Assembly (NCBI GenBank): GCA_000004985.1
Contig: GG739312.1
DNA length: 1,889 nt
Source: Naegleria gruberi
Lineage: Eukaryota
Reading direction: 5' to 3' (one strand)
Shown: positions 3 through 1,636 of the stretch, in pieces
How positions within the stretch are numbered: position 1 is the stretch's first letter
Layout: every line of letters begins with the position of its first letter
Translations under genes and position numbers: made by a program
The notes under the pieces: generated by a model
Told to the model about the DNA's origin: nothing
Seen by the model: the letters and a program-made list of their open reading frames with translations, nothing else
Database searches by the model: none

Positions 3-551
3 CATTTTGGAGTGTTTAGTTCAATGAAATTAACTTGTCTCGACCTATACAGTAACACTACGACCGAACAAGATCTGATTCATATCAGTAGATTGAAGAA
101 TTTGAAATACTTGAATGTTCGTTATTGTGATATGGATGACAAAAGTGTTAAATATATTGGCAAACTCGAAAATCTTACACACCTCAATGTAAATGAGAAT
201 TACATTTCTGATAAAGGTGTTAAATTCATAAGTGAGCTCAAACAACTTGTCGAATTAGAGATTGAAGATAACCCAACGATTAGTCCACAGGGAGTTGAAT
301 TAATATGTGGTATGACTCAACTAACTCATCTCAATATCGGTTGTAATTATTTAAATTTTGAGAATACCAGAGAATTAACCAAATTGAAAAACCTGACATC
401 CCTCGATTTAAATGGAAATGAAATCGGTAACGCTACGTATTTGAGTGAGCTAAGTAAACTCACCTATTTAAATATTGGATACTCATGTATGAACAATGAG
501 AATGTAGCCGGAAAGATTTTTCCTCTGGTCTTTCGAGGAAAGTTTCGCTGA
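3..551 (+). CDS. Leucine-rich repeat (LRR) protein, probably truncated at the window's 5' edge. The ORF track starts it at a GTG at 12, but the frame is open back to position 3 and the first residues are already an LRR unit. The stop is TGA at 549-551.
   Basis: The translation shows about six tandem 22-25-aa repeats matching the LRR consensus LxxLxxLxLxxNxIxxxG. Examples are LKNLKYLNVRYCDMDDKSVKYIGK, LENLTHLNVNENYISDKGVKFISE, LKQLVELEIEDNPTISPQGVELICG, MTQLTHLNIGCNYLNFENTRELTK, LKNLTSLDLNGNEIGNATYLSE and LSKLTYLNIGYS. The frame is open for 180 codons in AT-rich DNA, where stop codons are frequent. The first in-frame ATG is at 24, and GGAG at 9-12 sits slightly far upstream of it. The antisense ORF at 45..245 is therefore spurious. 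Confidence 0.8.
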   Translation, partial: HFGVFSSMKLTCLDLYSNTTTEQDLIHISRLKNLKYLNVRYCDMDDKSVKYIGKLENLTHLNVNENYISDKGVKFISELKQLVELEIEDNPTISPQGVELICGMTQLTHLNIGCNYLNFENTRELTKLKNLTSLDLNGNEIGNATYLSELSKLTYLNIGYSCMNNENVAGKIFPLVFRGKFR

Positions 552-579: not shown

Positions 580-833
580 AATATTGATTCATCCTTATTT
601 GAGTTGGTTTATTACCATAATGGCAAAAGTGACTGTATGTGAAGAATCCACCTTAATTTGTAATTTTTTGTTCTGAAGCAGCAAACCAATGATATTAGGA
701 AAAGACATCATGTACTAATTTACTATTTTATTTGATGAAATCAAGTGGAGAATACATAAAACAGATGTTGCTACAAGAAAACACAATGCTAATAATAAAA
801 ATATAATTTTAATTAATTATTGAAATAATTCAA

Positions 834-847
834 GGTGGAAAATCAGC
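834..847 (+). repeat. Copy 1 of the dispersed motif GTGGAAAATTCCAC (ggtggaaaatcagc).
   Basis: One of five same-orientation copies, all related to the TIR core TGGAAAtTCCA. Confidence 0.35.
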
Positions 848-874
848 AAGATTTACGACCTTGAAATTACCTTG

Positions 875-888
875 TTGGAAAATTCACC
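875..888 (+). repeat. Copy 2 of the motif (ttggaaaattcacc). It overlaps the left arm of the 879-901 hairpin.
   Basis: Motif alignment by eye. Confidence 0.35.
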
Positions 889-901
889 ATTAGTGAATTT
901 T
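879..901. repeat. Perfect 9-bp inverted repeat or hairpin, aaaattcac-catta-gtgaatttt. It ends in a T-run, so it resembles a weak AT-rich intrinsic terminator on the plus strand.
   Basis: The reverse complement of 879-887 equals 893-901 exactly, with a 5-nt loop. It is followed by ttttatt. Confidence 0.45.
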
Positions 902-913
902 ATTGATGGTGTG

Positions 914-1024
914 ATGATGATGACCATTAAGATATTTACCTTAATGATCGGAAGTGGACTTGCTGATGATATTGATGATAAAAGATATGATGAAGTGAAA
1001 ATTCCACAACTCTATGAATACTAA
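914..1024 (+). CDS. Speculative small ORF of 36 aa, MMMTIKIFTLMIGSGLADDIDDKRYDEVKIPQLYEY. It has a signal-peptide-like N-terminus (K, a hydrophobic core, then an SGLA/DD cleavage-like site) and an acidic tail. The frame is open from 824.
   Basis: ATG triplet at 914-922 preceded by ggtg at 908-911, stop TAA at 1022-1024. A 66-codon open stretch is about what chance predicts in 1.3 kb of this composition, so support is weak. Confidence 0.12.
   Translation: MMMTIKIFTLMIGSGLADDIDDKRYDEVKIPQLYEY
995..1007 (+). repeat. Copy 3 of the motif (gtgaaaattccac).
   Basis: Motif alignment by eye; 12/13 match to a perfect palindrome gtggaaAttccac. Confidence 0.4.
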
Positions 1025-1040
1025 GTGGAAAAATTCCAAC
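1025..1040 (+). repeat. Copy 4 of the motif (gtggaaaaattccaac).
   Basis: Motif alignment by eye. It lies 17 bp downstream of copy 3, and both are preceded by aagtg. Confidence 0.4.
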
Positions 1041-1139
1041 TCTTGATGGTGATATTAGACATCCCTAATGATACTATGTTGTTGAAATTCAATCATCATG
1101 ATGAAAATATATGGTGAATGATGAATACACCACCAACAA

Positions 1140-1153
1140 GGTGAAAACTCCAA
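1140..1153 (+). repeat. Copy 5 of the motif (ggtgaaaactccaa), more diverged.
   Basis: Motif alignment by eye. Confidence 0.3.
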
Positions 1154-1491
1154 ATATCCAAAAATTATTATTCGGAGTGTTGTTGATGAAGTATTTGAAT
1201 GGTACTATTCGAAGAAAGTTTGGTTGATGATGAAGTACATGTTGAAATATGGTCAATGTATATTTTGAATATATACATAGTATATAGCAATACATATTCG
1301 AGTTTCATAGATTGGAATTTTGTTTTCATATGATAGGTATTACAAATAATCCCACATTTGAATTTCTGATAATGGTCTAGTACATCGGAAGATATTGGCC
1401 AATTTAGTGAAAAATTAACTTTTGTCAAAATAATACTATTCTCAAATTAAAGTCTACAAATACTATTCTGTAGGTAAAAATTAATGATGAT

Positions 1492-1525
1492 GGTTGGTGT
1501 GTGTTCTGATGATGATTCACCAACT
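1492..1525 (+). other. Stem-loop with stem gttggtg/caccaac (7 bp plus a G-U pair). The 18-nt loop carries ctgatgatga. A T-run at 1530-1534 follows.
   Basis: Positions 1493-1499 and 1518-1524 are exact reverse complements. The loop contains C-box-like TGATGA and D-box-like CTGA motifs. Confidence 0.3.
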
Positions 1526-1636
1526 TGAATTTTTCCTATATCAAAATTACTATCTAATTCCATAACGATAAACTTCCACATAAAACTACTATCATTACTA
1601 TTATATTGATGATGTATAGATGATGAGGTTCAATTC

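Follow-up and report, generated by a model that had tools for sequence, protein, structure and literature searches.

A possible non-autonomous transposon with a repeat-filled interior at the 3' end of a leucine-rich-repeat gene of Naegleria gruberi

Overview of the segment

The DNA considered here is a stretch of 1,889 nt (about 30% GC) from contig GG739312.1 of Naegleria gruberi (GenBank assembly GCA_000004985.1), referred to below as the window. It holds the 3' part of a leucine-rich-repeat (LRR) gene and, overlapping the end of that gene, a segment flanked by inverted repeats. This segment, positions 536 to 1867 (about 1.33 kb), is read here as a non-autonomous class II transposon, the class with terminal inverted repeats (TIRs), or as the decayed remnant of one, lying at the LRR gene's 3' end; the probability of that reading is put at roughly 40%. 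The two arms, the non-coding interior, the strand-specific word repeats, and the local duplications are shown directly by the sequence; mobility and any binding by proteins are inferred. The original prediction had singled out five same-strand copies of a near-palindromic motif in the interior and, pointing to their likeness to the core of the terminal repeats, compared them to arrays of transposase-binding sites. The five copies are barely beyond chance as a group, and they are not demonstrably kin to the end repeats.

The features that define the segment are as follows.

536 to 584, no strand assigned: left inverted-repeat arm; imperfect palindrome over 525 to 574; core CTGGAAATTCCAG at 562 to 574.
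1819 to 1867, no strand assigned: right inverted-repeat arm; imperfect palindrome over 1829 to 1880; hairpin stem over 1837 to 1872; core CTGGATTTTCCAG at 1829 to 1841.
3 to 551, plus strand: 3' part of the LRR open reading frame (ORF), made of RNI-like 24-residue units and open at the left edge of the window.

The inverted-repeat arms

How firm are the arms? The inverted terminal repeats that had been predicted are real, and the two cores are correctly given, the right one, CTGGATTTTCCAG, reading CTGGAAAATCCAG in reverse complement. Repeat finding pairs 541 to 584 with 1819 to 1862 (44 nt, 80% complementarity), and a gapped alignment of 536 to 584 with 1819 to 1867 scores 49, compared with 16.7 ± 2.6 in dinucleotide shuffles (0 of 300 and 0 of 500 as good; z of about 12). 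The arms, 44 to 52 nt long and about 80% identical, are separated by indels of 1 to 2 nt, which argues that their similarity is not coding conservation. It is not significant beyond about 50 nt, either inward (585 to 700 against 1700 to 1818) or outward (500 to 535 against 1868 to 1889), so that both arms are complete in the window and bound a unit of about 1332 nt.

Each arm is in turn an imperfect palindrome of GGAAA and TTTCC half-sites, and aligns with its own reverse complement at a score of 35 on the left (4 of 500 shuffles) and 51 on the right (0 of 500). The hairpin of the right arm (-13.6 kcal/mol, z of -4.35, 0 of 200 shuffles) is the sole cause of the weak, sub-threshold matches to microRNA-precursor-like families that Rfam returns there; self-folding of the left arm gives a z of -2.3. 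On the inner side of both arms lies a symmetric, non-palindromic tail, GTAA(A/G)CAA(T/A)AT. The LRR frame runs into the left arm and ends there, with its TGA stop (549 to 551) and about its last five codons inside the arm, which counts in favor of an insertion near or into the 3' end of the gene.

Some smaller observations concern the edges of the arms. The inner edges (574 to 579 and 1834 to 1842) resemble splice signals, with CCA/GTAAAC on the left and a pyrimidine-rich run followed by TTTTCCAG/G on the right, where the slash marks the boundary. An exact 10-nt direct repeat, GGAAAGATTT, is present at 510 to 519 and at 1841 to 1850, and if its two copies were joined, no stop would close the LRR frame before the window ends (…NENVAGKISLRNSFLGYPSQK). 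This repeat probably just follows from the arms being palindromic; as a 10-nt target-site duplication of the Mutator type it was rejected, the sequences just inside it not being inverted repeats. The sole terminator-like site of the window, GGAAGTATTGCTTCC followed by GTTTTTATTT, lies on the plus strand at 1798 to 1822, just inside the right arm, and is not significant (1 against 0.5 expected).

A non-coding interior of same-strand repeats

As far as can be tested, the interior is non-coding. Its longest stop-free frame is 92 amino acids, none of the alternative genetic codes opens a convincing frame in it, and no interior frame is significantly depleted of stops (40 of 500 shuffles). Period-3 power is weak (51 of 500), compared with the strong signal of the LRR ORF, which is equaled by 1 of 500 shuffles. 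The full set of 33 interior reading frames of at least 28 amino acids, searched as one joined sequence, had no relative among 5.8 billion proteins, and searches of the interior for tRNAs and against Rfam gave no tRNA and no family above threshold. Sequences resembling bacterial promoters number 12, a background level (12.5 ± 3.5), and the window contains no downstream gene.

What the interior does contain is short words repeated on one strand, some of which recur in a fixed order.

733 to 1626, plus strand: TGATGA words, 17 on the plus strand against 1 on the minus strand (2.65 expected, 0 of 300 shuffles, z of 9.3); starts at 733, 912, 915, 918, 964, 973, 988, 1099, 1119, 1184, 1225, 1228, 1485, 1507, 1510, 1607, and 1621.
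721 to 1601, plus strand: TACTAT(T) words, 8 on the plus strand against 1 on the minus strand (0.50 expected, z of 10.6); TACTAT starts at 721, 1072, 1203, 1434, 1461, 1548, 1587, and 1596.
Recurring interior boxes: TACTATT; TGATGATGA; (A)AG(G)TGGAAAA(T)TCCA, the last being the five copies of the original prediction.
Box A: AAGTGGAAAATTCCA.

TGATGA, often as TGATGATGA, is the most over-represented word family of the interior and the only one that passes de novo tests; it frequently stands just upstream of copies of GTGGAAAA. It may have originated as a (GAT)n microsatellite that has since decayed, as the remnant of acidic coding sequence, or as a repeat box. TACTATT occurs 5 times against 0.15 expected. 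TACTAT is found mostly in the right half, usually with TGATGA 11 to 27 nt after it, a succession that points to a composite repeat unit recurring at a loose period of about 128 nt. A hint of the same period comes from direct 6-mer pairs, which number 788 in the interior against 427 ± 31 and have offset peaks near 130, 255, 385, and 635 nt. When the sequence is read by eye, the order TACTAT, TGATGA, (A)AGTGGA(A)AAT recurs from about 721, 1072, 1203, 1461, and 1596. The strand bias of both words, the excess of 6-mer pairs, and the recurring order of the boxes together describe a mosaic of degenerate same-strand repeats, which was probably built by local duplication or slippage of these short units. 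The strand-specific TGATGA and TACTAT words went unmentioned in the original prediction; they are stronger signals than the motif on which it rested, and unexplained ones.

Three other candidates for the organization of the interior were rejected. A larger duplicated unit of about 150 nt carrying two motifs is not significant (13 of 300 and 77 of 300 shuffles). A foldback, in which the whole element would be one palindrome, fails in that the interior is not palindromic (36 of 300). A cluster of box C/D small nucleolar RNAs (snoRNAs) was considered for the TGATGA excess, with a C box RUGAUGA, a D box CUGA 60 to 100 nt downstream, and a terminal stem as criteria. Only four CTGA are seen in the interior by eye, and the one candidate, at 911 to 967, has no complementary termini; the Rfam sR5 match reaches 17.4 bits, where the gathering score is 40.

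The five motif copies

The cluster from 834 to 1153 on which the original prediction rested comprises the following.

835 to 847, plus strand: copy 1, GTGGAAAATCAGC; at 834, GGTGGAAAATCAGC, the left half only, without TCCA; listed as one edit from TGGAAA[AT]TCCA.
875 to 888, plus strand: copy 2, TTGGAAAATTCACC; one C missing; TTGAAAT about 15 nt upstream, as in copy 1.
995 to 1007, plus strand: copy 3, GTGAAAATTCCAC; one G missing; first unit of a tandem duplicate of about 30 nt.
1025 to 1039, plus strand: copy 4, GTGGAAAAATTCCAA; at 1025, GTGGAAAAATTCCAAC, with one extra A; second tandem unit; best palindrome, TGGAA-AAA-TTCCA.
1141 to 1152, plus strand: copy 5, GTGAAAACTCCA; at 1140, GGTGAAAACTCCA, with one G missing and T changed to C; 2 edits from the arm core.
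829 to 865, no strand assigned: stem-loop, TTCAAGGTGGAAAATC / GATTTACGACCTTGAA; 16-bp stem with 14 of 16 paired (88%) and a 5-nt loop.

Reading of the sequence finds five copies of GTGGAAAATTCCAC where they had been reported (834, 875, 995, 1025, and 1140), with the 17-nt gap between 995 to 1007 and 1025, but as copies they are loose. The shared TGGAAAA(T)TCCA is borne out by the three good ones (876, 996, and 1026), and the other two (836 and 1142) are only half-matches. All five do lie on the plus strand, but this says little: the core is near-palindromic, with nothing but the A-run to give it an orientation, and at 850 to 865 the left half of the motif is found again, in degenerate form, on the minus strand. 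Other, loose minus-strand look-alikes occur at 1313 to 1322 and 1527 to 1537.

The copies resemble one another beyond the core, and they are not independent. Those at 995 and 1025, with the sequence AAGTG(G)AAAA(A)TTCCA(C)AACTCT, are a tandem duplicate of 30 nt that looks recent, and copy 5 is identical to copy 3 at 11 of 12 positions. Similarity between copies reaches 12 to 24 nt past the core: those at 876 and 995 have GAAAATTC(C)AC…TGAAT in common over 24 columns, and those at 835 and 1025 have AAT.C.A.GTGGAAAA in common. Half-site spacers vary from 1 to 3 nt, and the distances from site to site are irregular (41, 120, 30, and 116 nt). The stem-loop (-10.5 kcal/mol, z of -6.25, 0 of 200 shuffles) has copy 1 as its 5' arm and, as its 3' arm, the degenerate minus-strand copy at 850 to 865.

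What might such copies do in a transposon? If their resemblance to the arm cores is functional, they would be extra, low-affinity sites for the protein that recognizes the arms, and that protein would be a transposase supplied in trans. Should the box A copies have any role, extra binding of this kind is the most economical one to suppose; it is conceivable but unsupported. Literal matches to the Rel/NF-kappaB (GGAAATTCC), NFAT5/TonE (TGGAAAATTCCA), STAT GAS (TTCCNGGAA), and heat-shock-element (GAAnnTTC) strings also occur in the arm cores and in copies 2 to 4. They are a likeness of short AT-rich palindromes only, with variable spacing here and no functional context; the kappaB and GAS resemblance, which the original prediction had remarked on as a curiosity, is a coincidence of sequence with no evidential weight. 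A literature search for the motif as a string returned only unrelated matches; the NFAT5/TonE string TGGAAAATTCCA occurs in PMC4847014.

The proposed transposon weighed against its alternatives

A transposon-like frame is reasonable, because the terminal inverted repeats are real and words of the type GGAAAA(T)TCC do form a local cluster between them. In this section are gathered the results that weigh against it, together with the explanations that compete with it. (i) No target-site duplication of at least 3 nt was found at any plausible boundary pair, among all pairs with at least 8 of 10 terminal complementarity, and the best flanking repeat is 2 nt; the insertion may be an old one whose target-site duplication was short and has mutated. 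(ii) No second copy or relative turned up in genome, viral, and metagenome contigs, phages, and plasmids, collections that do not include the source genome. A blastn search of phages and plasmids found nothing, and a scan for the arm pattern that included 185,579 prokaryotic species genomes revealed no family; the nine metagenome matches to that pattern have only a 20-mer in common with it and range from 37 to 59% GC. (iii) A Pfam search of the interior frames gave no match and no transposase remnant. Such a remnant is not obligatory for non-autonomous elements. (iv) Slices of 130 nt from the interior align unconvincingly, at 37% column identity.

Among known systems, the segment comes closest to non-autonomous TIR elements that have internal repeats, among them deletion derivatives resembling miniature inverted-repeat transposable elements (MITEs) and foldback-type elements whose internal repeats are degenerate. 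It is like them in its hairpin-forming arms of about 50 nt, its non-coding, AT-rich, repeat-rich interior of about 1.2 kb, and its location at or inside a gene end. It differs in that no target-site duplication, second copy, or autonomous partner is shown and in that the arms are only about 80% identical, with indels. Of the features of class II elements, the terminal inverted repeats are there, and no target-site duplication or relationship to a transposase was found. The termini fit no superfamily signature that could be recognized. A piggyBac-like end was tried, CCCAGGAAAGAGT agreeing at 9 of 13 positions with the piggyBac terminus, CCCTAGAAAGATA, and was rejected: the flank does not read TTAA, and CCC is missing from the left arm.

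Might the arms be two insertions and not the two ends of one? They align in direct orientation as well (score of 35 against 16.6 ± 2.4, 0 of 500), which follows from their being internally palindromic and makes two separate small palindromic elements conceivable. A palindromic, hairpin-forming, miniature MITE-like element of about 50 to 60 nt would then have inserted twice, independently and in opposite orientations; the 1.2 kb between would be ordinary repeat-rich intergenic or 3'-flanking DNA, and the motif cluster an unrelated local duplication. In its favor, each arm is an autonomous imperfect palindrome of about 50 nt (scores of 35 and 51) with a hairpin, and so potentially a unit of its own, as in miniature MITEs and bacterial repeats of the REP, Correia, and RPE types. 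The similarity ends sharply at about 50 nt on both sides, the outer boundaries have no target-site duplication, and the DNA between the arms is not palindromic. But the arms align clearly better inverted than direct (scores of 49 and 35) because of the symmetric inner tail, and neither module on its own is flanked by a target-site duplication when the sequence is read. Only two copies are visible, symmetrically placed, with no family in the 185,579 prokaryotic species genomes and no further copy in any collection searched, the source genome not being among them. On balance this explanation is rather unlikely.

Is the motif cluster itself more than chance? The answer depends on how the question is put. 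The 14-mer of the original prediction has 2 matches at up to 3 mismatches against 0.29 expected, which 10 of 200 shuffles equal; to fit it, every copy needs an indel or at least 3 mismatches. A stronger result came from the arm-derived pattern TGGAAA[AT]TCCA, set in advance and scanned over the interior with indels allowed: 3 plus-strand matches at up to 1 edit against 0.21 expected (0 of 300 shuffles), and 6 plus-strand and 1 minus-strand matches at up to 2 edits against 2.25 expected (4 of 300). In the whole window, all six non-arm matches at up to 2 edits fall within 834 to 1153 (836 to 1152) and none in the other 1330 nt. Most of this strength is lost, however, because the arm word was chosen for matching and because the copies, with their tandem duplicate and common flanks, are not independent. 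When any arm 11- or 12-mer is allowed, the top recurrence in the interior is ordinary (47, 47, 97, and 66 of 150 shuffles), and the best local alignment of arm to cluster is at the chance level. The claimed tie between motif and TIR core thus does not go beyond chance once the choice of word is counted. In a de novo test the motif has 5 copies (k = 12, up to 2 edits), fewer than the null maximum, which is 6.9 ± 1.1. For a count of 5 in a 320-nt window, the null is 3.2 ± 0.5 with words of at least 4 G/C (2 of 120), a marginal result, and 4.3 ± 0.6 with all words (35 of 120), so that the P value of the cluster runs from about 0.02 to 0.3, depending on the words admitted.

One account of these numbers is that the cluster reflects chance and composition, in DNA that is 30% GC, rich in A-tracts, and skewed by strand, plus one small tandem duplication, with no function and no relation to the arms. 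It would explain why copy number, arm-word recurrence, and arm-to-cluster alignment are all ordinary, why the all-words window test and the 14-mer give so little, and why two of the copies are not independent; GC and AT skew, too, favor GGAAAA on the plus strand. It accommodates less readily the three close matches to the fixed pattern, the confinement of all six looser ones to 320 nt, the 2 of 120 for G/C-richer words, and the over-representation of GGAAA in the window at large (9 against 3.5 expected, 1 of 300). As an explanation of the cluster it is doubtful, on a par with the two small insertions.

The array of transposase-binding sites proposed in the original prediction fares poorly. The subterminal arrays of hAT (Ac/Ds), CACTA (En/Spm), and P elements and the end arrays of Tn7 and Mu lie about 50 to 300 bp from both ends in mirrored orientation. 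The present copies are like them in being short internal motifs that resemble terminal-repeat sequence, but the cluster is one-sided, 250 to 570 nt inside the left arm only, and its link to that arm is not beyond chance. Near the right end (1154 to 1767) there is no match to the fixed pattern at up to 2 edits and no mirrored cluster. Operator and iteron arrays, for their part, have uniform half-site and site spacing beside a promoter or origin, which is not what is seen here. The claim of a binding-site array is therefore not supported: the arm link is at the chance level, the cluster lies on one side, spacers and spacing vary, two copies are a tandem duplicate, and there is no target-site duplication, transposase, or second copy.

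The copies might serve a dimeric host protein, as homotypic sites of the form GGAA-N(1-3)-TTCC or GAAnnTTC in an enhancer- or operator-like module, whether or not the segment is a mobile element. The near-palindromes TGGAA-AAA-TTCCA (1026) and GAA-AA-TTC (876 and 996), those of the arm cores, and the clustering of the sites are compatible with this. The variable 1- to 3-nt spacers, the irregular distances, the two copies with a single half-site, the marginal statistical support, and the lack of a promoter or gene downstream in the window make it improbable.

About as improbable, and marginally behind it, is the suggestion that the interior is decayed coding sequence, for an acidic, Asp-rich protein or a former transposase. 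GAT-GAT would then encode Asp-Asp and GTGAAAATTCCA Val-Lys-Ile-Pro. Ten of the 17 TGATGA words do place GAT in window frame +2, which is interrupted by fewer stops than the other two plus frames (20 against 37 and 48) and reads ADDIDDKRYDEVKIPQL, LVDDEVHVE, and IDDEVQFLEWEDEEP, and there is a weak period-3 excess. But neither openness of frame (40 of 500) nor periodicity (51 of 500) is significant, protein and Pfam relatives are lacking, and the copies stand in different frames with stops between them.

Least likely of all is that the element is a mobile carrier of a homotypic GGAA-N-TTCC cluster, in which the same dimeric protein (a transposase or a derived or co-opted host factor) would read both sites and arms and a ready-made cis-regulatory module would be spread next to genes such as the LRR gene, or, in a second variant, that it is an intron-generating, "introner"-like insertion, as the GTAAAC behind the left core and the TTTTCCAG/G that closes the right one might suggest, the in-frame stop at 549 to 551, upstream of the GTAAAC donor site, counting against the latter.

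Returning to the non-autonomous transposon, what would it mean if correct? As it stands, the finding matters little. Should the segment turn out to be mobile, the non-autonomous TIR elements that have internal repeats would gain one further member, which in this AT-rich genome interrupts or abuts an LRR gene. The useful outcome is a negative one, namely, that an apparent terminal-repeat motif loses its significance after word choice, tandem duplication, and base composition are taken into account.

The LRR gene and its relatives

The ORF at the left of the window matches the Pfam domains LRR_6 (1.2e-17) and LRR_8 (2.7e-14). Together with the long non-coding DNA beside it, LRRs of this type point to a eukaryote, of a protist-like kind, as the most probable source. 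Of the named proteins, one from Naegleria gruberi comes closest (33% identity); unnamed LRR proteins reach 42 to 45%, and an exhaustive search gave 36,381 matches, the best at 40 to 45%. Among about 15 billion predicted proteins the top identity is about 45%; there is no exact match on record for the LRR fragment, for its version starting at ATG, or for an ORF of 78 amino acids, and a search of viral contigs with the LRR protein found nothing. The contigs that carry the relatives encode bacterial ROCO proteins; a further one, rich in transposons and with 41% GC, probably comes from a eukaryote. The contig of the nearest relative (ENA ERZ25039592, 1 to 20247), also given as 41% GC, does not resemble the window in its DNA except for the LRR repeats; it is crowded with transposon genes, namely those for reverse transcriptase (RT)/RNase H, rve, DDE_Tnp_IS1595, DDE_3, and a Tc3 helix-turn-helix (HTH) domain.

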